Below are positions 34,270-54,027 of a DNA stretch of 64,000 nt, in pieces. The stretch is from an uncultured Thermodesulfobacteriota bacterium (lineage in GTDB: Bacteria; Desulfobacterota; GWC2-55-46; JADFVP01): assembly GCA_964567185.1 (NCBI GenBank), contig CAZMKZ010000001.1:13507-77506 (forward strand). Direction: 5' to 3'. Both the position numbers and the translations under genes were made by a program. Every line of letters starts with the position of its first letter. Within the stretch, counting starts at the first letter, position 1. Under the pieces are notes generated by a model. The model had not been told where the DNA came from, made no database searches, and worked only from the letters and a program-made list of their open reading frames with translations.

Positions 34270-34343
34270 TGGAGCGGGCGATGGGAATCGAACCCACGTG
34301 TGCAGCTTGGGAAGCTGCCATTCTACCATTGAATCACGCCCGC
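34270..34343 (-). tRNA. tRNA-Gly (anticodon CCC)
   Basis: Reverse complement is GCGGGCGTGATTCAATGGTAGAATGGCAGCTTCCCAAGCTGCACACGTGGGTTCGATTCCCATCGCCCGCTCCA. Cloverleaf fits: GCAGC/GCTGC anticodon stem, loop TTCCCAA, TTCGATT T-loop, encoded CCA. Confidence 0.9.
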
Positions 34344-34625: not shown

Positions 34626-35726
34626 GTGCTTTTTTTGAAGGTTTTGAAAAAAATCATTCCCATCGCTGTCTTACTCGGCATCGCTGTGGCGGTGGTCTTC
34701 TATTTCAAGGGCAGGGGCCCCGGGGAGTCGGTAGACTCCATTACCGCCACGGGCACCATAGAGGCCACGGAGGTGGCGCTCTCGCCAAAGATTTCCGAGT
34801 CCATAGATTGGCTCTGCTGTAAGGTAGGCGGACGGGTTAGCGCGGGGCAGGTTGTGGTAAGGCTCGACGCGAGGGAATTAAAGGCCCTTGTGGCCGAGGC
34901 CTCAGCCACGGTGGCGGCCTCTGCCGAGGCCGTCAAGGAGGCCCGCGTTGAGCTGGAGATACGCCGCGTTGCCGTAGAGTCCGAAGGCTACGCCGTTGAA
35001 TCTGCCCGCTCCGAGGTCTTGCGTGTAAAATCCATTGCCATTGACGCTGAAAAAGAGTTCAAGCGTCTCCGGACCCTTGTGAAGAAGGGATTTGTCTCAA
35101 AGAGCGCCTTTGACAGCGCAAAGGCATCCTATGACTCGGCTGCGGCCAGCCTCAGCTCCGCGGAATCCGGGCTAAAGGCCGAAGAGGCGCGCCTCCGTAA
35201 CGCACGCGTGGCCGTAAAGAGGGCCGAGGCCGCGGTCTCGGCGGAAAAGGCGAGGCGCTTTAAAGACCAGGCAACCGAGGCCGTGCTTCGCACAAGGCTC
35301 TCATACGCGGAGCTTAAGAGCCCCATTGACGGCGTTGTATCTTACAAGGCCTTTGAGGCCGGTGAGATGGCCGTGCCGGGCCGGGCCATATATACCATAT
35401 ATGACCTTACGGATATGTGGGCAAGGCTCGACGTTGGAGAATCGGAGCTTGGCCGTGTAAGGCTTGGCGCCAGGGCCGAGGTCTGGACCGAAGCAAACCC
35501 ATCGAGGGTCTTCAAGGCGGTTGTTAGCGAGATAGGGCAGATGGGAGAGTTCGCCACTCATAAAGACGTGGTGCGTGTCTCTCACGATATCAAGACTTTC
35601 AGGATAAAGGTGAGGCTCTCTGACGCGGCGGGATTATTAAAACCCGGCATGACCTGCAAGGTAAGGATTTTGTTTGGTGAGAGCGGGGCTAAGGGCATTA
35701 AAACCCCGCTAAAGGCGGTGAAATGA
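34626..35726 (+). CDS. HlyD-family membrane fusion (periplasmic adaptor) protein
   Basis: N-terminal TM anchor, long Ala-rich coiled-coil segment, and C-terminal beta-barrel region. Precedes an ABC ATPase and permease. Confidence 0.75.
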   Translation: MLFLKVLKKIIPIAVLLGIAVAVVFYFKGRGPGESVDSITATGTIEATEVALSPKISESIDWLCCKVGGRVSAGQVVVRLDARELKALVAEASATVAASAEAVKEARVELEIRRVAVESEGYAVESARSEVLRVKSIAIDAEKEFKRLRTLVKKGFVSKSAFDSAKASYDSAAASLSSAESGLKAEEARLRNARVAVKRAEAAVSAEKARRFKDQATEAVLRTRLSYAELKSPIDGVVSYKAFEAGEMAVPGRAIYTIYDLTDMWARLDVGESELGRVRLGARAEVWTEANPSRVFKAVVSEIGQMGEFATHKDVVRVSHDIKTFRIKVRLSDAAGLLKPGMTCKVRILFGESGAKGIKTPLKAVK

Positions 35727-36724
35727 CCCCTGTTATAGAGACAAAGGGGCTTACCAAGCTCTATGGCGAAAAAAAGGCGCTGGACGGGGTGAACCTCTCT
35801 GTGCCGAGCGGCGATTTTTTCGGTCTTCTTGGTCCTAACGGCGCGGGAAAGACAACGCTTATACGCATACTCTCTACCCTTATAAAGCCCACAGGGGGCG
35901 AGGCACGTGTCTCTGGTTTTGACGTGGTCTCGGCGCGCGGCGCAGTGCGCCGGGAGATAGGCGTCGTCCCGCAGGCCATGACCACTGACCTTGACCTCAC
36001 GGCCAGAGAGGTCCTTGATATCTACGCCAGGTTCTATGGCATGAGGGGAAGGAAAAGACGTGAGCGCATAGATGAGTTGCTTGAAATGGTGGGGCTTACG
36101 GCAAGGTCCGGCGACCTTGTGGCCTCATACTCAGGCGGCATGAGGCGCAGGCTCGAGATAGCCCGCGGGCTTGTGCACATGCCCACGCTCCTTATCCTTG
36201 ACGAACCTACCCTTGGACTTGACCCTCAGACAAGGCACGTGGTCTGGGATCTGCTGCGAAGGTTTCGCGCCGAGGACGGCCTGACCGTACTTCTTACCAC
36301 TCATTACATGGAAGAGGCCGAGTCGCTCTGCGACCATGTTGCCATTATAGATAACGGCAATATCGTGGCCCTTGATACCGTGCCCGGCCTCAAGGCCATG
36401 ATACCGAGCCAGGACGTTATTGAGCTCGGACTTGGAGGCATTGCCCCTGATGAGGCCCAACGCTGGATTTCGTCCCTTGATATGGTAGATACCTGCACCA
36501 TATCCGATGATAACTTTGTCGTCTACGTGAAGGACGCCGTAGTGGTCCTGCCGGTCCTCCTTGAAGGGCTGAAAGCGCGCGGCGCGTCCATTACGAGAAT
36601 GGCCCTTAAGGAGAAGAGCCTTGAGGACGTCTTTATACATTTTACGGGCAGGTCCATAAGGGAAGAAAAGGCAAAGAAGGTAAACTACTTCTTAGGCGCA
36701 GGCGTGCCGGGCAAGATGAGCTGA
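35723..36724 (+). CDS. ABC transporter ATP-binding protein (ABC-2 subfamily)
   Basis: Walker A GPNGAGKTT, signature YSGGMRRRLEIA, Walker B LLILDEPT. Confidence 0.9.
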   Translation: MTPVIETKGLTKLYGEKKALDGVNLSVPSGDFFGLLGPNGAGKTTLIRILSTLIKPTGGEARVSGFDVVSARGAVRREIGVVPQAMTTDLDLTAREVLDIYARFYGMRGRKRRERIDELLEMVGLTARSGDLVASYSGGMRRRLEIARGLVHMPTLLILDEPTLGLDPQTRHVVWDLLRRFRAEDGLTVLLTTHYMEEAESLCDHVAIIDNGNIVALDTVPGLKAMIPSQDVIELGLGGIAPDEAQRWISSLDMVDTCTISDDNFVVYVKDAVVVLPVLLEGLKARGASITRMALKEKSLEDVFIHFTGRSIREEKAKKVNYFLGAGVPGKMS

Positions 36725-36788
36725 CTGCCCTCGCGGCAATAGTGCCTTAACCCCCTTAATTTCCCATAAGAGAAGAATACAGGCTCCC

Positions 36789-37910
36789 ATGCAGCGCATA
36801 TTCGCCCTCCTCGAAAGAGACCTCAGAAAATTCATCCGCAACCCATTTGTGGTAGCCGTCTCCATAGCCATGCCCATTGTCTACCTCATCATAATGGGTT
36901 CGAGCTTTCAGGGCGAACTGAAGCGGCTTTCCGTGGCCGTGGTGGACCAGGACAACGGCGAGTACGCAAGGACGGTTATTGATAACCTGCGCGCCATTGC
37001 CCAGGGCCCGGCCTCCATACGTGTCCTTACTTTAACGGACAAGGCCTCTGCCATGAAGGGCCTCAAAGACGGCCTTTTCAAGGCCGTCGTGGTCCTGCCG
37101 CGGGATTTTTCCAGACGGGCGCTACGCGGCGAGACCGCCGTTGTAGGTCTTTTTCTCGATAATGTGGAGACCATCCCCTCGGCCACAATAGAGAGAAGCG
37201 TCCGCGGCGCCGTCGCCAATGTTTACGGTGATTTTGTCTCCATGCGCGCCGAGCGCGGCAAGGTCATCGTGCGCTCGATAAACACCTACAGAAAGATAGA
37301 TTACGACCAGGGCCTTATACCCGGCGTGGTAATCATGGCCATATTCATCGGGGCCATGACAACGGGCGTTTTCAACGTGGTGATGGACAGGTTTCTCGGT
37401 ATTGACGAGAGCTACTTCCTTACGCCGCTGACAAGGCTCGACATAGTCGTCTCTCTTGTCATAAGCGGGCTCCTCGTGACCACCGTGCTTGCCGTAATCG
37501 TACTCTTTCTCTCTACCCTCACGGCGGGGCTCCAAATCTGGACCTTTCTTACCATCACGGGTTTTCTCTCGGTGCTGGCAATATTCGTCCTGACGGCGCT
37601 TTCGCTTCAGGGGCTTATGTTCCTCGTCATGGGCAGGGCCACGCATCCGAGGATACTGGGCATAATGGGCGGTTTTCTCAATGTCATATTCTTTTTTCCA
37701 AGCGGGGCCATATATCCTGTTGAGAGTTTTCCTCCCTGGCTGCAGGCCTTTGCCAGCGTAAACCCCGAGACATACTCGGTGCACGCCCTGAAGGCCGTGC
37801 TTTTCAAGGGCGCCGGCCTGCACGCCATAAGCAACGACCTGCTCTTTCTGGCGGGTTTTTCCTTTGTTTCCCTTACGGTGAGCATCATAACCTTTAAACG
37901 CTCTCTTTAA
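36789..37910 (+). CDS. ABC-2 family transporter permease
   Basis: 373 aa with an N-terminal TM helix, a large periplasmic loop, then 5 TM helices, as in ABC-2 permeases. Confidence 0.75.
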   Translation: MQRIFALLERDLRKFIRNPFVVAVSIAMPIVYLIIMGSSFQGELKRLSVAVVDQDNGEYARTVIDNLRAIAQGPASIRVLTLTDKASAMKGLKDGLFKAVVVLPRDFSRRALRGETAVVGLFLDNVETIPSATIERSVRGAVANVYGDFVSMRAERGKVIVRSINTYRKIDYDQGLIPGVVIMAIFIGAMTTGVFNVVMDRFLGIDESYFLTPLTRLDIVVSLVISGLLVTTVLAVIVLFLSTLTAGLQIWTFLTITGFLSVLAIFVLTALSLQGLMFLVMGRATHPRILGIMGGFLNVIFFFPSGAIYPVESFPPWLQAFASVNPETYSVHALKAVLFKGAGLHAISNDLLFLAGFSFVSLTVSIITFKRSL

Positions 37911-37941
37911 CCGCGCCCTGTAACACTTTGTAAAAATTCCC

Positions 37942-37970
37942 TTGACAGGGCCGTGAGGATATATTATTGT
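37942..37970 (+). promoter_or_regulatory. candidate promoter TTGACA-17 nt-TATTGT driving the riboswitch transcript
   Basis: -35 hexamer at 37942-37947 and -10 at 37965-37970, about 25 nt upstream of the riboswitch P1 stem. Confidence 0.45.
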
Positions 37971-37995
37971 CATAGCACAATTGAATAAATGGATA

Positions 37996-38150
37996 TCTTA
38001 TCCAGAGTGGTGGAGGGACTGGCCCGATGAAACCACAGCAACCGGTGCATCACTGCATGTCAGGTGCTAAATCCAGCAGGGTTTGCAAAAACCCTGAAAG
38101 ATAAGAAGAACTAAGAGACCCTCTTCTTATCCCAAGAAGAGTTTTTTTTT
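37996..38150 (+). ncRNA. SAM-I (S-box) riboswitch with intrinsic terminator expression platform
   Basis: TCTTATCCAGAGTGGTGGAGGGACTGGCCCGATGAAACCACAGCAACC...CTGAAAGATAAGAAG. The GGTGGAGGGACTGGCCCGATGAAACC core matches the SAM-I kink-turn/P2-P3 consensus, and P1 is TCTTATC/GATAAGA. A terminator CTCTTCTT-ATCCC-AAGAAGAG plus T9 lies at 38121-38150, and its 5' arm can alternatively pair with the P1 3' strand. Confidence 0.85.
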
Positions 38151-38218
38151 GCTCGTTTTTCGAGATGGCTTTAAGGCGAGTTTCTGTTTTTAACGTATCA
38201 GGCACAGGAGAAACCTAG

Positions 38219-39472
38219 ATGAAGTACATGAAAGGATTAAAGTGCAGGGAGTGCGGGAAGCGCTATCCCCTGGAACCGATCCATGTCTGCGAGTTCTGTT
38301 TCGGGCCCCTTGAGGTGGACTATGATTACGAGAAGATAGGCAAGTCCATTACCAGAGACATCATTACCACCAGAGCCCCTAATATGTGGAGATACAGGGA
38401 GTTGCTTCCCATAGACGCCGAGCCCACGGTGGGCAACAACTCCGGATTTACGCCCCTTGTAAGGGCCTATAACCTGGGCGAGGCCCTGGGCGTTAAAGAA
38501 CTGTACATAAAGAACGACGCCGTTAATTTCCCGACCCTCTCTTTCAAGGACAGGGTGGTCTCCGTGGCCATCTCAAGGGCCAGAGAGATGGGCTTTGACG
38601 TCATCGCCTGCGCCTCAACGGGCAACCTGGCCAACTCCGTTGCCGCCAACTCCGCGGCCTGCGGCCTTGATAGCTATGTCTTCATACCCTATGACCTTGA
38701 GCAGACCAAGATAACGGGAACCCTTATCTACGGCACTAACCTCGTGGGCATAAAGGGGACCTATGACGAGGTGAACAGGCTCTGCAGCGAGATAGGCGGC
38801 AAATACGGATGGGCCTTTGTAAACATCAACATCAGACCCTTTTATGCCGAGGGCTCCAAGACATTCGGCTACGAGATAGCCGAGCAGTTGGGCTGGAAGC
38901 TCCCGCAGCACGTTATTGTGCCCATGGCCGGGGGCTCTCTCATCACAAAGATATGGAAGGCCTTCAAGGAGTTCAAGGCCCTTGGTTTTGTCGATTCTCC
39001 GCCGGCGAAGATATACGGCGCGCAGGCAACGGGATGCGCCCCCATAGTAACGGCTGTTAAGGAAAAGAGCGAGCTCATCCGTCCGGTCATGCCCGATACT
39101 ATCGCCAAATCCCTTGCCATCGGCAACCCGGCCGACGGCTTTTACTCCGCAAGGGCCATCAGGGAGAGCAATGGCTGGGCCGAGGACGTTTCAGATGAAG
39201 AGATAATCGAGGCCATGAAGCTCCTTGCCGAGACAGAGGGCATTTTTGCCGAGACAGCCGGCGGCGTTACCGTGGGCGTGACTAAAAAACTCATCGAGCA
39301 GGGCAGGATACCCCGTGACGAGTCCATAGTCATCTCCATTACGGGCAACGGCCTTAAGACTCAGGAGTGCCTGGCGGGAAAAATCGCCGAGCCCCCTGTA
39401 ATAGAGGCTAAACTTGCCGAGTTCGACGCCCTGCTTGAGGGCGGCTCCGTGCGGAAGACGGCGGTAAAATAA
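38219..39472 (+). CDS. threonine synthase-like PLP enzyme (fold type II) with an N-terminal zinc ribbon; candidate O-phosphohomoserine-dependent homocysteine synthase (MetM-like, MA1715-like)
   Basis: CRECGKRYPLEPIHVCEFCFGPLEV zinc ribbon. PLP lysine motif FPTLSFKDRVVSV. ThrC-like length of 417 aa. First gene after a SAM riboswitch. Confidence 0.8.
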   Translation: MKYMKGLKCRECGKRYPLEPIHVCEFCFGPLEVDYDYEKIGKSITRDIITTRAPNMWRYRELLPIDAEPTVGNNSGFTPLVRAYNLGEALGVKELYIKNDAVNFPTLSFKDRVVSVAISRAREMGFDVIACASTGNLANSVAANSAACGLDSYVFIPYDLEQTKITGTLIYGTNLVGIKGTYDEVNRLCSEIGGKYGWAFVNINIRPFYAEGSKTFGYEIAEQLGWKLPQHVIVPMAGGSLITKIWKAFKEFKALGFVDSPPAKIYGAQATGCAPIVTAVKEKSELIRPVMPDTIAKSLAIGNPADGFYSARAIRESNGWAEDVSDEEIIEAMKLLAETEGIFAETAGGVTVGVTKKLIEQGRIPRDESIVISITGNGLKTQECLAGKIAEPPVIEAKLAEFDALLEGGSVRKTAVK

Positions 39473-39677
39473 GGGACGGGGCGTGATCGGGGGAGGCCCG
39501 TAGAGTATTGGCGCGGGGCAGGATTAACCGGCAGGGCCTGTGCAATATAACAAGGGCTGCCCGGTAGAGAGGCGGGTTCGGCTTGTAATAGTGACCCTCT
39601 TTCTGTTATCATTAGGGTTTAAGAAATATAAAAATTTTCCCTCTAAGAGGGGCGGTTTTCTTAAGGAGGTTTTTTTT

Positions 39678-40673
39678 ATGACGGACCATTTCATAGAGGA
39701 TAAGAGCCATAAGGTAGACCTTGACCTTGAGAACCTCAGCGGTAAGGTTAACTTCGGCGACCTCAAATCCGGGGGGTTCATAAAGCAGCGCCAGAAGGAC
39801 CTCTTTACCGTAAGGCTCCGCTGTCCCGGCGGCAGGATGACTACGGACAAGCTCGTGGAGATATCGAGGCTCGCAAAAAAATACAGCAAAGAGGGTGTGG
39901 TGCACTTCAGCTACCGCCAATCCCTTGAGATACTATATGTGGATTATAAGGACTTTCACGCCCTTGTGGGCGAGCTTGAGAAGATAGGTCAGAAAGTGGC
40001 CTCATGCGGGCCCCGTGTAAGGGTGCCCACTGCCTGCGGCGGATGCGAGTATAACCCCAACGGGCTTATAGACGCGCAGAAGATGGCCCGCATGGTGGAC
40101 GGTAAGTTCTTCGGAACAAATACGCCGCATAAGTTCAAGACCTCTTTTTCGGGCTGTCCCATAGATTGCTCAAGGACCGTTGAGATGGACCTCGGTTTTC
40201 AGGGCGTAGTGGACCCCGAGTGGGAGCAGGACCTCTGCACGGGATGCACCATCTGCTCCGAGGCCTGTAAAGAGGGGGCCATTGAGGCCCACCCCGATAC
40301 AGGAGAACCAATCTTCGACGTTAGTAAATGCCTTTACTGCGCCGACTGCATACGGGCCTGTCCCACCGAGGCGTGGAAACCCGGCAAGCACGGCTTTCTT
40401 GTGCGCATTGGCGGCAAACATGGCCGTCATCCCCTTGAGGGCGTTGAAATCTGCCGTTTCCTACCGGAGGAAAAGGTAAGCGACGCCATAGAGATGACCG
40501 TCAGGTGGTATAAAGAAAACGGCAAGAGTTTCGAGAGGATAGGGCACACCCTGCAGAGGGTGGGCATGGACGGTTATCTTGACCACATGGCCCCGCTCTT
40601 CGGTGATTATGCCGTTAGACCAAAGCATCCGCCCACGGACCGTCCGCTGATCAATAAGCCCGAAGGGGCCTGA
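39678..40673 (+). CDS. small dissimilatory-type-like sulfite reductase (Dsr-like, alSiR-type) with an inserted 2x[4Fe-4S] ferredoxin domain (start ATG 39678 with RBS AAGGAGG)
   Basis: NIR_SIR-type Cys cluster SCGPRVRVPTACGGC ... GCPIDCSRT. Ferredoxin motifs CTGCTICSEAC and CLYCADCIRACP. Confidence 0.7.
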   Translation: MTDHFIEDKSHKVDLDLENLSGKVNFGDLKSGGFIKQRQKDLFTVRLRCPGGRMTTDKLVEISRLAKKYSKEGVVHFSYRQSLEILYVDYKDFHALVGELEKIGQKVASCGPRVRVPTACGGCEYNPNGLIDAQKMARMVDGKFFGTNTPHKFKTSFSGCPIDCSRTVEMDLGFQGVVDPEWEQDLCTGCTICSEACKEGAIEAHPDTGEPIFDVSKCLYCADCIRACPTEAWKPGKHGFLVRIGGKHGRHPLEGVEICRFLPEEKVSDAIEMTVRWYKENGKSFERIGHTLQRVGMDGYLDHMAPLFGDYAVRPKHPPTDRPLINKPEGA

Positions 40674-40788
40674 TTAGCCGCGCTTCATTGGGTCGGGTAT
40701 GGATAATGGGGGGTAATCGGCGCAGTGGGTTTTCAGCTTTCGCCGGGAACCCGAAACATAACAGATCAGGACAAACGGTAAGGTTGAT

Positions 40789-41028
40789 ATGAGTGAGATA
40801 AAGGCAAAGGACAGCATCGATTTAAGGGGCGTCATGTGTCCCACAAACTTTGTAAAGACCAAGCTCAAGCTCGAGGCCATGAACCCCGGCGAGATACTCG
40901 AAGTGGTGCTTGACAGCGGCGAGCCTATCGCCAACGTGCCGAAAAGCGTCAAGGAAGAGGGACACAAGATAGTCAAGGTAAGCAAAGACGACGGCTCATT
41001 CAGGATTTTGATAGAGGTCTCTGAATAG
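40789..41028 (+). CDS. TusA/SirA-family sulfurtransferase-like protein
   Basis: 79 aa. ...IDLRGVMCPTNFVKTKLKLEAM... is a Cys-Pro TusA-like motif in a two-layer alpha/beta fold. Confidence 0.65.
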   Translation: MSEIKAKDSIDLRGVMCPTNFVKTKLKLEAMNPGEILEVVLDSGEPIANVPKSVKEEGHKIVKVSKDDGSFRILIEVSE

Positions 41029-41063
41029 CCCCTAATAAAGTTTTCAAGTACAAGGAGGAGAGT

Positions 41064-41348
41064 ATGTCAGTAAAGGTGAGGATACCCACACCCCTGAGGA
41101 AGATTACAAAGGACAACGACGAGGTCACTGCCGACGGGGCCACGGTCTCCGAGGTAATAGACGACCTGGAGAAAAACTATCCGGGAATAAAGGAGAGGAT
41201 ATGCGAGGCCGACGGGAACCTCCGCCGCTTTGTAAACCTCTATCTCAATGACGAGGACATTCGCTTCAAGGATAACCTCGCTACTGCACTGAAAGACAAC
41301 GATGAACTCTCCATCATTCCGGCCATCGCCGGAGGAGGTGGCCTTTGA
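41064..41348 (+). CDS. ThiS/MoaD-family sulfur-carrier protein (CysO/HcyS/MetO-like) whose C-terminus ...AIAGGGG-L* needs proteolytic exposure of Gly-Gly
   Basis: 94 aa beta-grasp pattern with a glycine-rich C-terminus followed by a single Leu before the stop at 41346-41348. Confidence 0.7.
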   Translation: MSVKVRIPTPLRKITKDNDEVTADGATVSEVIDDLEKNYPGIKERICEADGNLRRFVNLYLNDEDIRFKDNLATALKDNDELSIIPAIAGGGGL

Positions 41349-41581
41349 AAAAAAAGGTCTATCTAACCTATCCTCCGGAGAGGGTGAGAGAGCCTCTTCT
41401 CTGTGAGTGCGTGCGCAGGTTCAATGTCGTAACCAACATAAGGCAGGCCTCTGTTACGGACAAGATAGGCATCGTGGCCCTTGAGCTCGAAGGCGAGCCC
41501 ACGGAGATAGAAAAGGCCATGGACTTTTTTACTGAAAACGGCGTGAAGGTCGAGCCTATTGAGATGAATATTATCGAGTAG
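41345..41581 (+). CDS. stand-alone NIL-domain protein (the MetN C-terminal-type domain). TTG start overlaps the carrier-gene stop by 4 nt (TTGA); RBS GGAGGAGGTG
   Basis: KVYLTYPPERVREPLLCECVRRFNVVTNIRQASVTDKIGIVALELEGEPTEIEKAMDFFTENGVKVEPIE aligns by eye to the MetN NIL domain (LTFTGE...PLISEL.RRFGVDVNIL.GNIE...G.L.VELEGD...ALAYL.E.GV.VEVL). Confidence 0.7.
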   Translation: MKKKVYLTYPPERVREPLLCECVRRFNVVTNIRQASVTDKIGIVALELEGEPTEIEKAMDFFTENGVKVEPIEMNIIE

Positions 41582-41679
41582 CGCCCTCTCACCTTTCCCC
41601 GTCCTTGTCCAAAGGACGGGGAGCCTTGCAAATTCAACTCCCATTGGATTCTTTTCCTTGAAATCACTGCATATTATTC

Positions 41680-41706
41680 TTGACAAACCCGCTAAGGTAT
41701 TATAAT
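41680..41706 (+). promoter_or_regulatory. possible internal promoter (TTGACA-15 nt-TATAAT) upstream of the CysM-like gene, preceded by a 10-bp hairpin CCCCGTCCTT-GTCCA-AAGGACGGGG at 41594-41619
   Basis: Hexamers and hairpin seen directly. The spacer is short at 15 nt. Confidence 0.3.
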
Positions 41707-41810
41707 TTAAAAACTTGATTGTTTTAGTAAGGTAATAAAAAATGCCTTGTAAAAAGCGAGGTTTTAAGGCGCCTCTCCATAATGCTTAACATAATTCCAA
41801 GAGGCCTTGA

Positions 41811-42767
41811 ATGAGCAGCCATACCTTGAAGAGTTTTGACGCAGGGAACGAGTTTGCCATCCCGAAGGCGAGGTCCTCGGCCCTTGACCTTGTGGGCAAT
41901 ACGCCCCTTGTGAGGATAAACAGCATTACAGCGGGTCTTCCAGCCGGCGTAGAGGTATACGCCAAGCTCGAGTCCGCCAACCCCGGGGGCTCTGTAAAGG
42001 ACAGGCCGGCGCTCCGTATGATAGAAGACGCCGAGAAGAGCGGAAGGCTTACCAGGGATAAGATAATACTGGACTCCACATCGGGAAACACGGGCATTGC
42101 CTATGCGTGGATAGGCGCCGTAAAGGGCCATCGCGTAGAGCTGGTGGTTCCGGAAAACGTCAGCGCCGAGAGAAAAAAGATACTCGACGCCTTTGGGGCC
42201 AAGGTCATATTTTCAAGCCCCTTCGAGGGCTCCGACGGTGCGATACGTCTTGCCTGGAAGCTCTACGTGGATAACCCCGAAAAGTACTGCAAGCTCGATC
42301 AGTACAATAACCCCTCCAACCCCCTTGCCCATTACCATGGCACGGGAGTTGAGATAATCGAGCAGACAGGGGGCAGGATCACGCACTTTGTCACCACCAT
42401 AGGCACGGGCGGCACCATAATGGGGACCATGCGCAGGCTCAAGGAGTTTAACAGCAATATCGAAGTAACCGCCGTTGAGCCCGACAACCCCATGCATGGG
42501 CTTGAGGGCCTGAAACACATGGCCTCGTCCATAGTGCCGGGCATCTATCACGAGGACTCGCTGGACAGGAAGATACCGGCCTCCACCGAAGAATCTTACG
42601 AGATGGCCAAGAGGCTAGCCCGTGAAGAGGGCCTTCTTGTGGGGCAGTCATCGGGGGCGGCCATGCTCGGAGCGCTCAAGGTGGCCATGGAGCTTAAAGA
42701 GGGTCTTGTTGTGACAATATTCCCCGACGGCGGAGATAAGTACCTCTCCACAAGCCTCTGGGATTAA
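41811..42767 (+). CDS. cysteine synthase-like PLP enzyme (CysM/CysK family, fold type II)
   Basis: GNTPLVRINSI...VYAKLESANPGGSVKDRPALRMIEDAEKSGRL...DSTSGNTGIAYAWIGAVKGH is the classic CysK/CysM N-terminal half, including the PLP lysine. Confidence 0.85.
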   Translation: MSSHTLKSFDAGNEFAIPKARSSALDLVGNTPLVRINSITAGLPAGVEVYAKLESANPGGSVKDRPALRMIEDAEKSGRLTRDKIILDSTSGNTGIAYAWIGAVKGHRVELVVPENVSAERKKILDAFGAKVIFSSPFEGSDGAIRLAWKLYVDNPEKYCKLDQYNNPSNPLAHYHGTGVEIIEQTGGRITHFVTTIGTGGTIMGTMRRLKEFNSNIEVTAVEPDNPMHGLEGLKHMASSIVPGIYHEDSLDRKIPASTEESYEMAKRLAREEGLLVGQSSGAAMLGALKVAMELKEGLVVTIFPDGGDKYLSTSLWD

Positions 42768-43010
42768 GGGCTACGGGGAGCCCGGGCAGATTATTATTTT
42801 AAATGGCTGACAACAGCCGGTATTGATTTTTTTGGCCTGTCTTTTTTTGAAAAAAGAAGGCCACGCGGTTTTTTTTGATGGTTTCGGCTTCACGGGTTAT
42901 GCTTTGCTTTGTCCATCGTGCAAGTGTTTCCATGCGGCTACAGGCCGCTTATAAATGTGATTAAAGGGGCGTATTGCCCATAACGTGTAAATAAAGATAA
43001 GGGGCAAGTA

Positions 43011-43463
43011 ATGGGTCTACTCTCAAAGTTCAAGAAAAAGAATAAGCTGAAGGTGCCTAAGGACGTTTACGATATCATCATTGAACATGCCAGAGAGGAG
43101 TATCCCCATGAGTGTTGCGGAGTTCTCATAGGTAACGCCATGATGGGCAGAAAGATATTCTACGCCGACAAATGCACGAACCTGAACCGCGAGAGCGCAC
43201 ATAACAGGTATCTCATGGACCCCAAGGAGATAAATCTTGCCGATAAGGGTGCGCGCTCGCAGAGCCTTGAGCTTATGGGCTTTTATCACTCTCATCCGGA
43301 CCATCCGGACAGGCCCTCGGAGTACGACAGGGAGATGGCCCAGCCCGGATACTCATATATAATAGTCTCCGTAAAGGGCGGTACCGAGTTCTCCTTGAAG
43401 TCATGGACCTTTAACGAGGACGATGAACCCTTCAAGGAAGAGCCCGTGGAGATAGGCAAATAA
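43011..43463 (+). CDS. JAMM/MPN+ family metalloprotease (Mec+/HcyD/QbsD-like)
   Basis: E...ECCG, HSHPDHPDRPSEYD (JAMM motif HxHx7Sx2D). 150 aa. Confidence 0.85.
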   Translation: MGLLSKFKKKNKLKVPKDVYDIIIEHAREEYPHECCGVLIGNAMMGRKIFYADKCTNLNRESAHNRYLMDPKEINLADKGARSQSLELMGFYHSHPDHPDRPSEYDREMAQPGYSYIIVSVKGGTEFSLKSWTFNEDDEPFKEEPVEIGK

Positions 43464-43584
43464 AAACCCGGAGGGGTATGTTTGCAGTATACTTTCGGCG
43501 TTAGCGTCCCTGTAATGGGGTGAGTTTTCTTTTTTTGCCGCGATACTACATTTTGTTTTTGCATAGAGGGGGTTAGAGGTCAAG

Positions 43585-44394
43585 ATGGATTTTACCGATG
43601 AACAGATAGAGCGTTACTCAAGGCATATCATACTTCCGGAGGTAGGCGGAAAGGGGCAGGCAAAGCTCCTTGAGTCCAGGGTCTTTGTCCTCGGCGCGGG
43701 GGGGCTCGGTTCTCCGGCCCTGCTTTACCTTGCCGCGGCGGGCGTGGGCACCATAGGGGTTGCAGACGGCGACGTTGTGGATGTAAGCAACCTTCAGCGC
43801 CAGATAATACACGACAACAATACCGTTGGTATGCCAAAGGTGGATAGCGCGCGAAAGTCCATTGAGGCCCTTAATCCCGATGTTGAGGTAAAGACCTTTA
43901 ACGGCAGACTTGATACGGAGAACATCAGAGAGGTCCTTCGGGATTACGATGTGGTCCTTGACGGCTCTGATAATTTTCCAACGCGCTACCTCATGAACGA
44001 CGCCTCTTTTTTCGAGGGCAAGACCCTTGTCTCGGGGTCCATGTTCAGGTTTGACGGGCAGGTCTCTGTCTTCAAGCCGCAGGAGGGCTTTCCCTGTTAC
44101 AGATGCCTCTACCCGGAGCCCCCGCCAAAGGGCATGGTTCCGTCCTGTCAGGAGGCCGGTGTGCTTGGGGCCCTTGCGGGAGTTATAGGGGTACTGCAGG
44201 CCGTGGAGGCCATAAAAGAGATACTCTCCATCGGCAAATCCCTTGCCGGCGAGCTCTTGATATTCGACGCCCTTGCCATGAGTTTCCGCAAGGTCAAGGT
44301 GCGCACAGACCCTGATTGCGCGCTCTGCGGCGGGAATGCTACCATAAAGGAGCTCTCGCTCTATGAGCAGGCCCCATGCGAGCTGCGTACCTGA
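43585..44394 (+). CDS. ThiF/MoeB/HcyF-type E1-like adenylyltransferase (no rhodanese domain)
   Basis: RYSRHIILPEVGGKGQAKLLESRVFVLGAGGLGSPALLYLAAAGVG nucleotide-binding motif. C-terminal Zn motif CYRC...CALCGG. Confidence 0.85.
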   Translation: MDFTDEQIERYSRHIILPEVGGKGQAKLLESRVFVLGAGGLGSPALLYLAAAGVGTIGVADGDVVDVSNLQRQIIHDNNTVGMPKVDSARKSIEALNPDVEVKTFNGRLDTENIREVLRDYDVVLDGSDNFPTRYLMNDASFFEGKTLVSGSMFRFDGQVSVFKPQEGFPCYRCLYPEPPPKGMVPSCQEAGVLGALAGVIGVLQAVEAIKEILSIGKSLAGELLIFDALAMSFRKVKVRTDPDCALCGGNATIKELSLYEQAPCELRT

Positions 44395-44461
44395 TTCGGC
44401 TTTTCGGACTTATGCCGCAAACAGGGGACGGAGAAAGCGGTCTTTTACCTGAGGCGGTTGA

Positions 44462-45697
44462 GTGGTATTGAAAAGCCTGGATTACTTCAAGAACCCCGGA
44501 GCCCTTAAGATAGACCTTATGCTGAGGGGGGCGGCCATAGAAGACCCCCTTGTGAAGGCGCATGCCTGCGGGGCCTCTGGCATAGATATACTCCTGCCTA
44601 AAAAGACCCTCGTAAACATCCCCTGCGAAGACTGGTTTACCGTGCGCTCCCCTTATCTCATTAAAAAGTCTGAAAAGGGGTATGTCCTTACAAACGGCAA
44701 GGCCGAGGTCAGGGTAAGCATACTTCCGCCGCCGAAGTTTTACGGACTGAAGACAAGTTCAGGCGTAAGGCTTGGAGAAATAGCCAGCACTCACGGGAGT
44801 TACACCGTCATAACGCCCGACCAGAGGTGCGCTTTTTTTAAATCAAGCGCCCAGTGCCGTTACTGCGCGGGAAACTTCAGGTCCGACGCCGCCGCGTCCG
44901 GCGCGCGCGTCTATACAGTAGACGAGGTATTAGAGACAGTAAAAGCGGTATTCAGGGAGAGGGCCTCCGGGATAATATACCTCTCAATAGGTTTTGCCGA
45001 GGGCGATGACGGGGGTATAAAATTTCTTGAGCCCTATGTAAGGGCCATTAAGGGGCATTTTAACTGCCTTGTCGCAGTAGAGGCCCTGCCCCCCGCGCGA
45101 AACGAGTGGATCGACAGGGCGTACGCCAGCGGCGTTGATTCACTGCTCTATAACCTTGATATCTTTGATAAGGAGCTTTTTTCCATAATCTGCCCGGGCA
45201 GGGCCGGCCTCATAGGCAGGAAGAGGACCCTTGAAGCCCTGAAATACGCCGCGGGTATCTTCCCTAACGGCACGGTGGCCTCGCACCTCATTGTGGGGCT
45301 TGAACCGCCGGGTTCCACTATCATGGGCATAGATTATCTTACGGATATCGGCGTAGTGCCCATACTGCCCATATTCCGGCCTTCAAGGGAGAGGCCCCTT
45401 GATGTTACGGACCTTCATGCCGAGGTGATTATACCGGTATATCAGCACCTGTACCGGTCCTTGAAGAAAAAGGGCATTAACTTCAACTGGGTCCGCGACA
45501 TAAGCATGGTGACAACCCCCGTGGAGGGCAGGTTCCTCCTTGGGGAAAAAGAGGGCTCAGCCTCTCTGCTTGATAATTTTTACGGCTCAAAGCTCGGCCT
45601 TAAGACGGCATGGGGGCTCTCGGCCCTTCGAAGGCGGCTGCGGGTAAAAAAGCCCGCCAATGAAGAAAACCCCCCAGGCGGGTCTGAAAAGACATAA
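44462..45697 (+). CDS. uncharacterised protein with the Cys triad CAFFKSSAQCRYC (CX8CX2C). Possibly a non-canonical radical-SAM-like TIM-barrel enzyme, or alternatively the COG1900/DUF39 homocysteine-synthesis protein
   Basis: GTG start. 411 aa. Glycine-rich stretch IYLSIGFAEGDDGG about 35 aa after the Cys triad, and later ...VPILPIFRPSRERPL, reminiscent of radical SAM beta-strand motifs. No canonical CX3CX2C. Confidence 0.35.
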   Translation: MVLKSLDYFKNPGALKIDLMLRGAAIEDPLVKAHACGASGIDILLPKKTLVNIPCEDWFTVRSPYLIKKSEKGYVLTNGKAEVRVSILPPPKFYGLKTSSGVRLGEIASTHGSYTVITPDQRCAFFKSSAQCRYCAGNFRSDAAASGARVYTVDEVLETVKAVFRERASGIIYLSIGFAEGDDGGIKFLEPYVRAIKGHFNCLVAVEALPPARNEWIDRAYASGVDSLLYNLDIFDKELFSIICPGRAGLIGRKRTLEALKYAAGIFPNGTVASHLIVGLEPPGSTIMGIDYLTDIGVVPILPIFRPSRERPLDVTDLHAEVIIPVYQHLYRSLKKKGINFNWVRDISMVTTPVEGRFLLGEKEGSASLLDNFYGSKLGLKTAWGLSALRRRLRVKKPANEENPPGGSEKT

Positions 45698-45710
45698 AGG
45701 GAGTATTACC

Positions 45711-47135
45711 GTGAGAGTGGAGATAGACAGGAGGCCCATATCAATAATCATCGCCAATAAGGCGCTGAGGCCCCTTTTTTTCCTTCTCCTTACGGTGGGA
45801 TTTTTCTCATTCCTATACCTCCCCGTGCCCGAGGGGCTGGGGCAGGGCGGCATGAGGGCCATAGCCGTCTTTCTTCTATGCCTTGTGCTCTGGGTCTCAA
45901 ATGCCGTTCCCGTGGCCATTACGGGGCTCTTCGCCATAGTCCTCGTGCCGCTTCTGGGCATACTGCCAAGGGGCGATACGTATTCCCTATTCGGCAATGA
46001 GGCCGTGTTTTTCATACTCGGCGCCTTTATCCTCTCCGGGGCGGTCATGCAGTCCGGCCTCTCGAACAGGGTGGCCCTGCGGCTGATGGAAAAATACGGC
46101 GGCTCTCCGAAGAGGCTTATCATAAGCATATTTCTTCTCGCCGCGGCACTCTCATTCGTAATGAGCGAGCACGCCGTTGCGGCCATGCTCTTTCCCATAG
46201 TGCTTGAGATATCAAAGAGCCTGAAGCTCCGGCCCGGCGTTTCCAACTACGGAAAGCTCCTCTTCTTTGCCCTTGCCTGGGGTTCGGTCATAGGCGGGGT
46301 GGGGACCTTTCTCGGCGGAGCGCGTGTGCCCCTTGCCATGGGCATTCTGAAGGAGACCACGGGCTCTACCATAGGCTTTCTGGATTATACCGTGGCCGTC
46401 GCGCCCCTTGTCGTGGTGCTGCTGGTGGTGGGATACATCGTGCTGACAAGGTTCTTTCCCATTGACATCGAGGGCGTAGAGAGCGCGCACGAGGTCATTG
46501 TAAGGCGCGCCCGCGCCCTTGGCAAGGTGCGCCCGGCAGAGTACGCCGTAGGGGCCATACTCCTTATTACCATCTTTTTCTGGGTGACCATTGGCAAGAC
46601 CGTGGGCCTTGCCGCCATCGCCATGGTCTCGGTGATGGCCCTCTTTGTATTGAAGCTCGTAAAGTGGCGTGAAATTGAGGAGTATGTGAACTGGGGAATA
46701 ATCCTCATGTACGGCGGGGCTATTATCCTCGGCACGGCCCTTGACAGGAGCGGCGCCGCCAAATGGATGGTAGACGCCATTATGACTCAATGGGCCGAGA
46801 CGCCGGTGACGGTGCTGGCGCTCTTTTCACTCCTGGCCATACTGCTCACCGAGTCCATGAGCAACGCCGCCGTCATCGCCGTGCTCCTGCCCGTGAGCAT
46901 CGGCATGGCCGGAAGCACCAATATGAGCCCGGAAGTCCTTACCTATGCCGTGGCCATTCCGGCGGGTCTGGCCTTTATGCTGCCCATGAGCACGCCGGCC
47001 AACGCCATCGCCGTATCAAGCGACTACATATCCGTGCGCGATATGGCAAAGGGAGGGGTGATAATGTTCATCACCTCATGGGTCACCTTTAATCTCATGG
47101 CCCATTTTTACTGGCCCCTCATAGGGCTAAGGTAG
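45711..47135 (+). CDS. SLC13/DASS-family anion permease (Na+/sulfate symporter-like). Start at GTG 45711 with RBS AAGGGAG; the track start 45660 overlaps the upstream gene
   Basis: Polytopic. The PVPEGLGQGGMRAIAVFLLCLVLWVSNAVPVAITGLF hairpin-loop motif is typical of DASS transporters. Confidence 0.65.
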   Translation: MRVEIDRRPISIIIANKALRPLFFLLLTVGFFSFLYLPVPEGLGQGGMRAIAVFLLCLVLWVSNAVPVAITGLFAIVLVPLLGILPRGDTYSLFGNEAVFFILGAFILSGAVMQSGLSNRVALRLMEKYGGSPKRLIISIFLLAAALSFVMSEHAVAAMLFPIVLEISKSLKLRPGVSNYGKLLFFALAWGSVIGGVGTFLGGARVPLAMGILKETTGSTIGFLDYTVAVAPLVVVLLVVGYIVLTRFFPIDIEGVESAHEVIVRRARALGKVRPAEYAVGAILLITIFFWVTIGKTVGLAAIAMVSVMALFVLKLVKWREIEEYVNWGIILMYGGAIILGTALDRSGAAKWMVDAIMTQWAETPVTVLALFSLLAILLTESMSNAAVIAVLLPVSIGMAGSTNMSPEVLTYAVAIPAGLAFMLPMSTPANAIAVSSDYISVRDMAKGGVIMFITSWVTFNLMAHFYWPLIGLR

Positions 47136-47224
47136 GGTTGGGGCAAAACCTGGCGGGTTTATGGGAAAAAATACCGATAAACCCGCCATTATTGTTTACC
47201 TTCCAGAGGATTTAGGTTAAAATA

Positions 47225-47689
47225 ATGGGCAATAAAATACTACTCGTTCTATCGACTCACTCGTACTCGGACCAGGCCGTTGAATATGCTGTCACGAGGG
47301 CCGCGCAGGAGGGCCGTGTGCTTGTGGCCTTCTTTCTGCTTGAGTCGGAGCTTGCCAGAGAGGCCTCGGAGAGGTTCTCGGATATCGGCTTTACAGGCGA
47401 CAAGCCTTCGGCCACGCTCACGGAGTCTCTTATGCGTGAGTACAGGCAGAGGGGCTACGAGGCCCTTGGCAGGGCGCAGATAAGGGCCATGGAGGAGGGC
47501 GTGAGCTTTGAGCCTCTTCTGGATGAAGGGCCTTATGTCTCCACCATACTCGATGCCATAGAGGTCAATGATATAGGACTTGTGGTTATACAGAAGCGCA
47601 GGGAGAGGTCTCTTTTCAAGTACTTTAAAAAGGGTCTTTCCGCAGAGGTGAAAGAGATGGCCTCCTGTGAGGTCGTTATAGTGGAGTAA
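47225..47689 (+). CDS. universal stress protein (UspA family)
   Basis: 154 aa Usp alpha/beta fold. NKILLVLSTHSYSDQAVEYAV...CEVVIVE. Confidence 0.75.
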   Translation: MGNKILLVLSTHSYSDQAVEYAVTRAAQEGRVLVAFFLLESELAREASERFSDIGFTGDKPSATLTESLMREYRQRGYEALGRAQIRAMEEGVSFEPLLDEGPYVSTILDAIEVNDIGLVVIQKRRERSLFKYFKKGLSAEVKEMASCEVVIVE

Positions 47690-47724
47690 TGTAAATTCAT
47701 CACGGTTGAAAGGGAGGATTCAAA

Positions 47725-48432
47725 ATGGCAGTAAAGAAGTGGTCTGAAGAAGAACTTAAAGAGGTATCCGCGGAGCTTGAAGACAAGGGGCCGCAGGCGG
47801 CCATTCAGTGGGCCGTGGACAATTTTGAGAGGCAGGACCTGTCCCTTGCCTGTAGCTTCGGCGCCGAGGATGTAGCCCTGGTGGATATGCTCGTGAAGAT
47901 AAAACCTGACGCCAGGATATTTTATCTTGATACAAACAAGCTCTTTAAGGAAACCATTGATGTTATGGAGCGCCTTAAGGAGAAGTACCACATAAACCCT
48001 GAAAAATACTGCACAAAGATGAGCCTTGAGGAGCAGGCCGAAAAATTTGGACCTGAGCTCTGGAAAAAAGACCCCAAGCAGTGTTGCGATATCAGGAAGA
48101 TAAAACCTCTTAGAGAGGCCCTGTCTGGGCTCAGCGCATGGATAACTGGCATAAGAAGGGACCAGGCCCCTGCAAGGGCCAATGCCCCTGTCGTTGGCTG
48201 GGATTCCATGTTCAACCTGGTGAAGATAAACCCCCTTGTCAAATGGACGAGCGACGATGTATGGGATTATATCCGCGCCAATGACGTGCCCTACAATGTG
48301 CTCCACGACAGGAATTATCCCTCCATCGGCTGTGAGCCATGCACCAATGAGGTAAAACCCGGCGAAGACCCCAGGGCCGGAAGATGGGCTGGTTTCAAGA
48401 AGACCGAGTGCGGCCTTCATGACAAATCATAG
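47725..48432 (+). CDS. cysH: assimilatory adenylyl-/phosphoadenylyl-sulfate reductase (CysH family, Fe-S type)
   Basis: PAPS_reduct fold (SFGAEDVALVDMLVKI). Fe-S Cys pairs KQCCDIRK and IGCEPCT. Catalytic C-terminal ECGLH. Confidence 0.85.
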   Translation: MAVKKWSEEELKEVSAELEDKGPQAAIQWAVDNFERQDLSLACSFGAEDVALVDMLVKIKPDARIFYLDTNKLFKETIDVMERLKEKYHINPEKYCTKMSLEEQAEKFGPELWKKDPKQCCDIRKIKPLREALSGLSAWITGIRRDQAPARANAPVVGWDSMFNLVKINPLVKWTSDDVWDYIRANDVPYNVLHDRNYPSIGCEPCTNEVKPGEDPRAGRWAGFKKTECGLHDKS

Positions 48433-48520
48433 ACATAACCAGTATGAGGTTGCTGCTTCAATATATTGATTTATCAGCCTTTATGTCTTTTAACCCACAG
48501 CATAAGGAGGTTCTCTAAAA

Positions 48521-49684
48521 GTGGAGTCATTGATACCGCCCCATGGCGGCGTGCTTGTTAACAGGGTCGTAGAGGGTAAGGCCCGTCTTGATATGGAAAA
48601 AGCCTCTCTTGATATGAATACCCTCACCCTTAATGCGAGGGAGATATCAGACCTTGAGATGATAGCCACGGGCGGGTTCAGCCCCCTCGAGGGGTTCATG
48701 TGTCATGACGATTATCACTCTGTCATGGATACCATGACGCTGATAAACGGCCTGCCCTGGACCATACCCGTAACCCTTTCTGTAACCACGGAGGAGGCGG
48801 CCGGACTTAAAGAGGGCGTGGATGTTGCCCTTAATAACGAAAAAGGGGAGCTTCTCGCTATCCTTCATCTTGAGGAGATTTTCAAGCATGACAAGGAAAA
48901 AGAGGCCCTTCGAGTATACGGCACCGCCGAAGACGCGCACCCGGGGGTGAAAAACGTCTATGCAATGGGCGAGATGCTTCTTGGCGGCAAGGTCTCCATG
49001 CTCAAACGCACCGAGTACGGCGAGTTCAATGAATACCGCAGGGACCCGCTTGAGACAAGACAGCTCTTCAAGAAGAACGGCTGGAGGCGTGTTGTGGGCT
49101 TTCAGACAAGAAACCCCATACACAGGGCCCATGAGTACATACAGAAGTGCGCCCTTGAGACAGTTGACGGTCTTCTCATACACCCCCTTGTGGGCGAGAC
49201 AAAGGCCGACGACATACCTGCCGATGTGCGGATGCGTTGCTACACGACCCTTATGGAGAAGTATTACCCCGCCGACAGGGTAGTGCTCTCCGTATACCCG
49301 GCGGCCATGCGCTACGCAGGCCCCCGTGAAGCCGTCTTTCATGCCCTGATTCGCAAAAATTACGGCTGTACGCATTTTATCGTAGGCAGAGACCACGCAG
49401 GGGTGGGCGGGTATTACGGCACCTTTGACGCCCATCTCATATTCGACCAGTTCGAGCCCGAGGCCATAGGCATAGCGCCCATGTTCTTTGACTATACCTT
49501 TCATTGCAGGAGCTGCGGCGGCATGGCCTCGTACAAGACCTGCCCCCACGATTCATCGGAGCATATTACCCTTTCGGGAACAAAGGTAAGGGAGATGCTG
49601 AGGGCCGGAACGTGCCCTCCGCCTGAATTCTCAAGGCCGGAGGTGGCAAAGGTCCTCATTGAAGCCATGAAGCCGGCGGATTAA
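48521..49684 (+). CDS. sat: sulfate adenylyltransferase (ATP sulfurylase)
   Basis: GTG start with [26 protein letters not shown] and GRDHAGVG motifs. Confidence 0.9.
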
Positions 49685-53271: not shown

Positions 53272-54027
53272 GTGCGAAGACTTGTTATGGCAGTATCAGT
53301 CTTTATCTCATTTCTTCTCTTAAGCGTTAATGCTTACGCCCTCGTTGATGTTGAGGCGAGATACTGGTTTACCAACCTTGATGCAAACATCGAGGCCAAC
53401 AGCGGCACTGTCATAGGCACGGACCTGGACCTTGTAAACGACCTCGGTGTAGACGACCATGAAAACTTCCTTGAGGGCAGGATTACCCTTGAGCTTGGCC
53501 ATCATAGTTTTCGTTACGCCTACATGCCCCTTTCATGGAGCGGTAACGGAGTGGTTGCGCAGAACATAAGCTTTGCAGGAAAGACTTTTTCGGCCTCTAC
53601 CGCTGTTTCCACGGATGTGCAGATAGATTACCACCGTTTCAGTTACCGCTATGATTTTTTTAATAAACTGAAGAACCGTATTGGTGTTATCGCTGAGGTC
53701 AAGTACTTTGACGGCAGGGTGAACCTCAAGGACGCGGCACTCGGACTCGACGAGTCCACGCGTCTGCAGATACCCATGCCGGCCATCGGCATAGGCGGTC
53801 AGATATCCATACCTTTGCTCGCTAAAATAGGGGCCGAGGTGACGGGTATGAGCCTCGGCACGCTGGCCTATGTGCTTGACGCAGAGGCCAACATCGGTTT
53901 CAAGCCACTGCCCTTTGTAGACATCTCCGCCGGGTACAGGTACTTGAAATTCCATATTGACAAAGATGGAGATGTGGGCAGCATTAGCCTGAGAGGACCC
54001 TTTATCACATTGACGGCTGATTTTTAA
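53272..54027 (+). CDS. outer-membrane beta-barrel protein
   Basis: Signal peptide, alternating hydrophobic beta-strand pattern, and a C-terminal aromatic residue (…TLTADF*). Confidence 0.5.
   Translation: MRRLVMAVSVFISFLLLSVNAYALVDVEARYWFTNLDANIEANSGTVIGTDLDLVNDLGVDDHENFLEGRITLELGHHSFRYAYMPLSWSGNGVVAQNISFAGKTFSASTAVSTDVQIDYHRFSYRYDFFNKLKNRIGVIAEVKYFDGRVNLKDAALGLDESTRLQIPMPAIGIGGQISIPLLAKIGAEVTGMSLGTLAYVLDAEANIGFKPLPFVDISAGYRYLKFHIDKDGDVGSISLRGPFITLTADF

Follow-up and report, generated by a model that had tools for sequence, protein, structure and literature searches.

A SAM-I aptamer upstream of a ThrC-like gene

The locus described here lies in a 64,000-nucleotide stretch of contig CAZMKZ010000001.1 from an uncultured Thermodesulfobacteriota bacterium (this whole stretch is referred to as the window, and coordinates count from its first letter). 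Its subject is a leader RNA element ahead of a forward-strand gene, 38219-39472 (+), which encodes a homologue of threonine synthase (ThrC) and stands at the head of a series of co-directional sulfur-metabolism genes. Judged by sequence and predicted fold, the element is an S-adenosylmethionine (SAM) riboswitch of the SAM-I or S-box family. The Rfam scan matched SAM-I (RF00162) at 37995-38107 (+) with 94.0 bits against a gathering score of 44.4 (E = 2.7e-21), the match spanned the full model (positions 1-108 of 108), and it was the only riboswitch match in the whole window. A lenient Rfam scan (E <= 1) of the leader and the operon (37900-47300), in which a second regulatory RNA was sought, matched only SAM-I. 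A preliminary description, made by reading the letters, had named the element as SAM-I and proposed a scan with this covariance model as the check; the element passed it, and the conserved core and the P1 helix are found at the places that had been quoted for them.

The aptamer comprises helices P1 to P4 and a pseudoknot in which the P2 loop pairs with J3/4. P1 pairs TCTTATC (37996-38002) with GATAAGA (38100-38106), the conserved core GGTGGAGGGACTGGCCCGATGAAACC begins at 38009, and the pseudoknot pairs CUGG (38020-38023) with CCAG (38073-38076). Across 67 gene-linked aptamers, pairing holds in 92.5% of the cells of P1-P4 and the pseudoknot, and both sides have changed in 20 pairs. None of 500 shuffles reached the observed values for pairing and covariation, and slid controls were 35-52% paired. 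For the pseudoknot by itself 93.6% of the cells are paired, its second pair being U-A in 29 cases and A-U in 27. The core is nearly invariant in this set, and the stems carry compensatory changes. In the ligand-free fold, bases immediately 5' of the aptamer engage the 5' strand of P1 in a small, local hairpin (UGGAUA/UAUCCA; 37990-38004). The GGATA of this hairpin is kept in the closest relatives, and it may help to hold P1 open or may be incidental.

Promoter and expression platform

Upstream of the aptamer, at 37942-37970 (+), lies a sigma-70-like promoter with a -35 element TTGACA (37942-37947), a 17-nt spacer and a -10 element TATTGT (37965-37970), which the pattern scan scored at 10 of 12 matches. 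In the alignment with 7 related leaders, CTTGACA at the -35 element is invariant and the -10 hexamer keeps its opening TA. The transcription start probably lies a few bases 3' of this promoter. Downstream of the aptamer, an intrinsic terminator at 38121-38150 (+) is made up of CTCTTCTT (38121-38128), the loop ATCCC, AAGAAGAG (38134-38141) and a run of nine T (T9, 38142-38150). The hairpin, in which a stem of 8 bp with 3 G-C pairs closes the 5-nt loop, has a folding energy of -8.5 kcal/mol (z = -3.1), and a pattern scan located the terminator independently. A second helix, the antiterminator, pairs GAUAAGAAGA (38100-38109), which is the 3' strand of P1 plus 3 nt, with UCUUCUUAUC (38122-38131) in the 5' arm and loop of the terminator on the same strand; it has 10 bp and a folding energy of -10.4 kcal/mol (z = -3.4). 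Because the two downstream helices share 38122-38128 and the antiterminator also takes up the 3' strand of P1, P1 plus terminator on the one hand and the antiterminator on the other are mutually exclusive. In the minimum-free-energy fold of the full leader, computed ligand-free, P2, P3, P4 and the antiterminator are present while P1 and the terminator are absent, and this modelled state matches the default-ON state expected of an OFF switch. The preliminary description had already placed the terminator here and had noted that its 5' arm is complementary to the 3' strand of P1, a mutually exclusive arrangement; the pattern scan bears out the first, and the 10-bp antiterminator with its formation in the ligand-free fold the second. 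The complementarity quoted there needs a small correction, since 10 of its 11 bases pair and the first C of CTCTTCTTATC stands opposite an A. The ribosome-binding site (RBS) AGGAGA (38206-38211) and the ATG start codon (38219-38221), both on the forward strand and read from the sequence and the list of open reading frames (ORFs), lie well past the T-tract and therefore take no part in the alternative helices: the RBS is about 100 nt past the aptamer, and RBS and start are about 55 nt past T9. In the leader alignment, AGGAGA is conserved in the closest relatives (the window and loci L001-L003).

A hairpin and a T-run follow the aptamer on its 3' side in at least 62 of the 67 leaders. This number is a lower bound, as the simple terminator finder missed five leaders whose hairpin loops exceed 8 nt; in these five, CCTCTTCTTA...AAGAAGAGG and then a T-run can still be seen by eye. 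For locus L040 the finder returned only a weak unrelated hairpin, and the fold shows the same long-looped terminator. Leaders of the delta type have CCTCTTCTTATC...GAAGAGG-T7 in common. Those of the zeta type have a different 3' strand of P1 (GAGCGATGA), which is matched by ATCGC in the terminator, and the complementarity to P1 shifts together with the P1 sequence between lineages. An analogous long antiterminator helix, GCGAUAA/UUAUCGC, is formed from different sequence in Mariprofundus (L067).

These elements suggest the following mechanism. When SAM is plentiful, it would be bound by the four-way-junction aptamer (37995-38107), and helix P1 would be locked. Positions 38100-38106 would then be unavailable for the antiterminator, the hairpin at 38121-38141 would form, and RNA polymerase would stop in T9 ahead of the genes. 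When SAM is scarce, P1 would open and its 3' strand would pair with 38122-38131, by which the terminator would be blocked and the operon transcribed. Cells low in SAM would in this way make the MetM-type enzyme discussed below and its sulfur supply.

Assignment of the first gene

The gene that follows the leader encodes a PLP (pyridoxal 5'-phosphate) enzyme of 417 amino acids that is homologous to ThrC and carries an N-terminal CxxC...CxxC zinc ribbon (Pfam PALP, 234 bits, plus the zinc ribbon). It has thousands of relatives, mostly from uncultured Thermodesulfobacteriota/Deltaproteobacteria, which are labelled 'threonine synthase' where the source gives a name. Solved ThrC structures align only to residues ~52-400 of the protein and are about 40% similar to it. 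A structure of MetM, the homocysteine-forming homologue introduced below, was sought in the Protein Data Bank and none was found; only canonical ThrC structures matched. Two other ideas about this protein were discarded. Cysteate synthase was rejected as its function, with TIGR03844 scoring 73 bits against a 325-bit cut-off, and the N-terminal zinc ribbon was dropped as a marker of MetM, as it is also covered by haloarchaeal plasmid thrC genes and by several of the 'threonine synthase' models in NCBIfam.

In Streptomyces albulus, MetM and MetO carry out a thiocarboxylate-dependent conversion of O-phosphohomoserine to homocysteine (Hasebe et al. 2024, as related in two papers that cite it). According to GapMind and to these citing papers, MetM is homologous to threonine synthase and is often misannotated as ThrC, and the citing papers also place a SAM riboswitch upstream of metM in S. 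albulus (Hasebe et al. 2024). In what papers citing that study say of the pathway, the Mec (JAB) and MoeZ (ThiF-like) steps serve MetM, as is also listed in GapMind 2026, and one of them reports a cyanobacterial homologue that is 51.6% identical to MetM. On the basis of its gene context and its similarity to an uncharacterised actinomycete counterpart, we assign the protein encoded at 38219-39472 as a putative MetM-type homocysteine synthase. It would make homocysteine from O-phosphohomoserine, using the thiocarboxylated C-terminus of a ThiS-like carrier encoded in the same operon. Since the MetM-type first gene is paired with this MetO/ThiS-like carrier, the riboswitch would control a methionine-pathway gene, and its placement would represent ordinary end-product feedback control and nothing odd. 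The preliminary description was right that the switch precedes a ThrC-homologous gene. Its remark that this gene stands there 'rather than a canonical met gene' holds insofar as the protein is ThrC-like, but the oddness was overstated, because the gene matches a MetM-type enzyme of the methionine pathway with a linked carrier.

Linkage of aptamer, ThrC-like gene and carrier at related loci

A genome scan gave 80 loci that encode a ThrC-like protein at 66-91% identity, and these belong to Thermodesulfobacteriota, Brocadiia (anammox bacteria), Zetaproteobacteria, Nitrospira and Auribacterota. SAM-I was found just upstream at all 8 loci tested with Rfam. A covariance model was then built from the hits at the Rfam-tested loci and run on all 80, and it detected a SAM-I aptamer on the coding strand at 66 of them. 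The aptamer lies 67-328 nt ahead of the start codon at 60 loci; at the other 6, a CysM-like or ThiF gene comes between the aptamer and the ThrC-like gene, and the aptamer is 0.9-2.4 kb upstream. Among the 14 loci without an aptamer, four have less than 190 nt of upstream sequence. The other ten (L007, L030, L033, L034, L041, L042, L051, L055, L057 and L059) lack the riboswitch despite adequate upstream DNA, so the linkage is common but not obligatory. Four of these ten (L051, L055, L057 and L059) have a different gene order, namely ThrC-like, CysM, JAB, ThiS fused to NIL, and ThiF. A ThiS-like gene accompanies the ThrC-like gene at 73 of the 80 loci, which amounts to 73 of 73 informative ones, as at the seven loci without it the contig breaks off no more than 1.6 kb from the ThrC-like gene; at 37 loci the two genes are direct neighbours. 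The preliminary description had spoken of 'direct evidence' that the operon answers to SAM. With the aptamer present at 66 of 80 related loci and a terminator in at least 62 of 67 leaders, such a response is indeed supported by conservation, but the wording was too strong for a prediction that is based on sequence.

The downstream gene cluster

All genes from the ThrC-like gene onward are on the forward strand. The second one (39675-40673) encodes a small protein that resembles sulfite/nitrite reductases and contains a 4Fe-4S ferredoxin insert (Pfam NIR_SIR, NIR_SIR_ferr and Fer4); its ORF may start as early as 39540, and it has a weak match to sulfite reductase subunit C. It is followed by genes for a TusA-family sulfur-transfer protein (40789-41028; Pfam TusA, 79 bits), for a ThiS/MoaD-family sulfur carrier resembling MetO and CysO (41064-41348; Pfam ThiS, NCBIfam SAMP1 and MoaD family) and for a stand-alone NIL-domain protein (41345-41581; Pfam NIL). 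Next comes a PLP enzyme of the CysM/CysK family (41811-42767), which is like cysteine synthase B: it passed the cysKM subfamily model, scored 376 bits with the cysM model TIGR01138, just below the 394-bit cut-off, and has CysM structures as its nearest solved relatives. The gene at 43011-43463 encodes a JAB/MPN metalloprotease resembling Mec and HcyD (Pfam Prok-JAB), which scored 84 bits with the NCBIfam desampylase model, below the 130-bit cut-off. Its role is presumably to trim the C-terminus of the carrier and/or to free the amino acid from the carrier adduct. An E1-like adenylyltransferase of the ThiF/MoeB family, predicted to act on the carrier, is encoded at 43585-44394 (Pfam ThiF, 267 bits; NCBIfam MoeB subfamily model passed).

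Beyond these genes lie one for a variant radical-SAM protein (44462-45697; NF045502 variant_rSAM, MSMEG_0568-like, 166 bits) and, overlapped at its start by 38 nt, one for a DASS-family anion symporter (45660-47135; Pfam Na_sulph_symp, TIGR00785), which by its family is a candidate sulfate/thiosulfate importer. The radical-SAM gene is found at 36 of the 80 loci, from delta- to zeta-proteobacterial ones, and its product has no obvious role in a thiocarboxylate pathway. The co-directional tail of the cluster (47225-49684), identified with Pfam, consists of genes for a Usp-like protein (47225-47689), an APS/PAPS reductase (adenosine 5'-phosphosulfate/3'-phosphoadenosine 5'-phosphosulfate reductase, CysH; 47725-48432) and ATP sulfurylase (Sat; 48521-49684). 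The order DASS-Usp-CysH(-Sat) is retained in L009 and L016, and the tail genes would complete an assimilatory sulfate-reduction set. Taken together, the cluster looks like a full assimilatory path that runs from sulfate through a protein thiocarboxylate to two PLP enzymes. The symporter, Sat, CysH and the sulfite-reductase-like protein would supply sulfate uptake, activation and reduction; TusA and the ThiF/MoeB protein would serve sulfur transfer and carrier activation, and the JAB protein carrier trimming or product release. The CysM-like enzyme would form a parallel branch to cysteine.

The carrier encoded in the window ends in ...PAIAGG followed by GGL. PAIAGG is invariant in the relatives, where it may form the very C-terminus, may carry 1-3 further residues that vary, or may lead into a fused NIL or ThiF domain. 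In-frame ThiS-NIL fusions occur at 12 loci (L016, L026-L028, L030, L031, L035, L038, L051, L055, L057 and L059), and an in-frame ThiS-ThiF fusion at one (L042). Activation of the carrier would require cleavage after Gly-Gly. Its most constant neighbour is the NIL gene, which stands beside the ThiS-like gene at 66 of the 80 loci.

On the other side of the leader, the window holds an exporter set at 34626-37910 (+), consisting of an HlyD-like adaptor, an ABC ATPase and an ABC-2 permease, and upstream of it a tRNA-Gly(CCC) gene at 34270-34343 (-). In L001-L003 the exporter set has remained syntenic with the riboswitch locus, and L010 and L018 have the set as well. Three ORFs of 250-330 amino acids have no Pfam match: 47533-48420 (-), 50816-51802 (+) and 53272-54027 (+). 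The first is probably an opposite-strand shadow of the CysH gene, and the other two adjoin genes for an SLH-domain protein (51799-53037) and a GNA1162-like lipoprotein.

Comparison with known systems

In Mycobacterium tuberculosis, CysO, CysM, Mec and MoeZ form a thiocarboxylate pathway to cysteine. It shares four components with the window, namely a ThiS-like carrier, an enzyme of the CysM family, a hydrolase of the JAB/MPN type and an activator resembling MoeB/MoeZ; unlike the window, it makes cysteine only, whereas the cluster described here adds a MetM-like enzyme and has the whole set behind a SAM-I element. The mycobacterial set is not known to be under a SAM riboswitch. A thiocarboxylate pathway to homocysteine, formed by HcyS, HcyD, HcyF and MetY, is reported from Wolinella succinogenes (Krishnamoorthy and Begley 2011). 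It reportedly has a carrier tail that is trimmed by a JAB protein, an E1-like activator and a linked sulfite reductase, as in the window. Its homocysteine-forming enzyme is reported to be MetY, which has the O-acetylhomoserine sulfhydrylase fold, in contrast to the ThrC fold of the enzyme encoded in the window.

With regard to the RNA, the four-helix aptamer, the pseudoknot, the core and the competition between P1, antiterminator and terminator are the same as in SAM-I/S-box leaders such as those of Bacillus subtilis yitJ and metI or of metIC and metX in Geobacter and Desulfuromonas. Only the controlled gene differs, being a ThrC homologue that heads a sulfur-carrier operon and not metIC, metX, metE, metK or a transporter gene. 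S-boxes followed by a hairpin and poly-T have been known in delta-proteobacteria (Geobacter, Desulfuromonas) since 2004 (PMC545781).

A protein search of PLSDB identified a more distant counterpart in Nonomuraea gerenzanensis (NZ_LT559118.1, locus L081), where positions 3816-5506 hold a SAM-I element (68.7 bits), then a ThrC-like gene and directly after it a ThiS-like gene. The ThrC-like protein is 56% identical to that of the window and has the same zinc ribbon, and the ThiS-like protein has 91 amino acids, ends in AGG and is 51% identical to the window carrier. The Nonomuraea aptamer ends 13 nt ahead of the start codon and so abuts it, which suggests translational rather than termination control, while termination is the predicted mode of control in the window. 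The record itself is listed in PLSDB as a 'plasmid'; with 11.85 Mb and almost no annotation, it is evidently chromosome-sized. It contains three ThrC-like matches in all.

The order SAM-I, ThrC-like gene, ThiS-like gene in Nonomuraea is the layout reported for metM-metO of S. albulus (Hasebe et al. 2024, as described in the citing papers). As far as that description goes, metM-metO also resembles the window in combining a ThrC homologue and a ThiS-like carrier ending in GG with a SAM riboswitch ahead of them; the likeness is one of layout, with Nonomuraea as proxy. Compared with the same description, the window differs in that its carrier gene is split from the ThrC-like gene by the sulfite-reductase-like and TusA genes, in that the operon adds NIL, CysM-like, JAB, ThiF, radical-SAM, transporter, CysH and Sat genes, and in that the carrier has a 3-residue tail after GG.

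Alternative explanations and extent of the controlled transcript

Based on the present data, we consider it very likely that the locus is a case of classical S-box feedback, in which a SAM-I element serves as a transcriptional OFF switch before a MetM-type sulfur-carrier operon. Several observations speak against this. With 8 bp, of which 3 are G-C (-8.5 kcal/mol), the stem of the terminator is short and rich in A/U, so that termination may be leaky; the carrier gene lies three genes downstream of the ThrC-like gene here and is not adjacent to it; and a rescan of the ten aptamer-less loci with usable upstream DNA against all Rfam families, in which another SAM class was sought, gave no match. 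Moreover, the first protein passes the NCBIfam equivalog models for threonine synthase, TIGR00260 with 293.9 bits (cut-off 167.1) and PRK08197 with 311.1 (cut-off 303). Together with the similarity of about 40% to solved ThrC structures and the public name 'threonine synthase' of the relatives, this last point would fit a genuine threonine synthase that is repressed by SAM, by which O-phosphohomoserine would be partitioned between threonine and methionine. We regard this as quite improbable. Passing these models does not establish ThrC function, because they predate MetM and do not separate it from ThrC, and GapMind calls MetM commonly misannotated as ThrC. The context is not one of threonine biosynthesis, in that the neighbours are all sulfur-metabolism genes, the leader is predicted to be SAM-responsive and the ThiS-like carrier is linked at all informative loci. 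The genes hom and thrB were not found among the cluster genes and about 40 other window ORFs of at least 180 amino acids, a scan outside which about a dozen ORFs fall, mainly at 1-16.7 kb. The actinomycete counterpart has the published metM-metO layout, and given three ThrC-like matches in the Nonomuraea record, its riboswitch-linked copy need not be the housekeeping one. The regulatory logic would also be inverted, since high SAM should steer the shared precursor to threonine. In plants, threonine synthase is activated by SAM. Still less probable, in our estimation, is that the switch works at the level of translation or that the element is the relic of a decayed switch. The weakness of the terminator hairpin would agree with this, as would the Nonomuraea aptamer, whose position close to the start codon suggests translational control in that lineage. 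Translational control is nevertheless unlikely here, because the RBS lies far beyond both the aptamer and T9 and outside any alternative helix, and a relic would not be expected to keep hairpin and U-tract in nearly all leaders or a near-invariant core with compensatory stem changes.

More serious than the possibility of a true threonine synthase is an alternative that concerns the extent of the transcript. Control by the riboswitch might be limited to between one and five genes at the front of the cluster (from the ThrC-like gene to NIL), with CysM, JAB, ThiF, the radical-SAM gene, DASS, CysH and Sat expressed from internal promoters that do not respond to SAM. We consider this a possible but not the preferred arrangement. 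Gaps of about 230-245 nt precede the CysM-like and JAB genes, and the pattern scan found weak terminator-like sites after 42767 and 43463; both argue against a single long transcript, and some of the 13 genes may accordingly lie outside the control of the riboswitch. A regulon in which SAM controlled cysteine synthesis as well as the whole of sulfate reduction would, in addition, be unusually broad. On the other side, every gene of the cluster points the same way and most gaps are short, loci from different phyla keep the gene order, and the lenient scan of 37900-47300 turned up no second riboswitch. In L026-L028, furthermore, a CysM-like and a ThiF gene stand between the aptamer and the ThrC-like gene, which places the CysM-like and ThiF functions under the switch at those loci. 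At its widest, a single SAM-I element may control all 13 genes of a complete route that leads from sulfate to both cysteine and homocysteine and in which one carrier would serve both the CysM-like and the MetM-like enzyme and the NIL partner and the radical-SAM enzyme would also be involved; we offer this only tentatively, as it is rather less likely than not to apply in full. If it were true, assimilatory sulfate reduction in these bacteria would take its master signal from SAM and not from cysteine or sulfide.

Implications

The SAM-I family, S-box terminators in delta-proteobacteria (2004) and, going by the papers that cite the original report, the pairing of a SAM riboswitch with metM (2024) were already known, and the understanding of SAM-I riboswitches is unchanged by this locus. 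What is new is an instance in an uncultured Thermodesulfobacteriota bacterium, where it is part of a sulfur-assimilation operon that exceeds the two genes of the actinomycete version. Some puzzles fall outside this finding, namely the NIL partner that is sometimes fused past the carrier Gly-Gly, the radical-SAM gene, and the fact that cysteine synthesis and sulfate reduction apparently stand behind a SAM sensor. The pairing of SAM riboswitch and metM, first reported in Streptomyces, would be extended to several other phyla. The main value of the finding is in annotation: the 'threonine synthase' label on this gene and its thousands of relatives would be corrected to methionine synthesis, and the homocysteine step would thereby be filled in genome-scale models of uncultured Thermodesulfobacteriota, anammox bacteria and Zetaproteobacteria.

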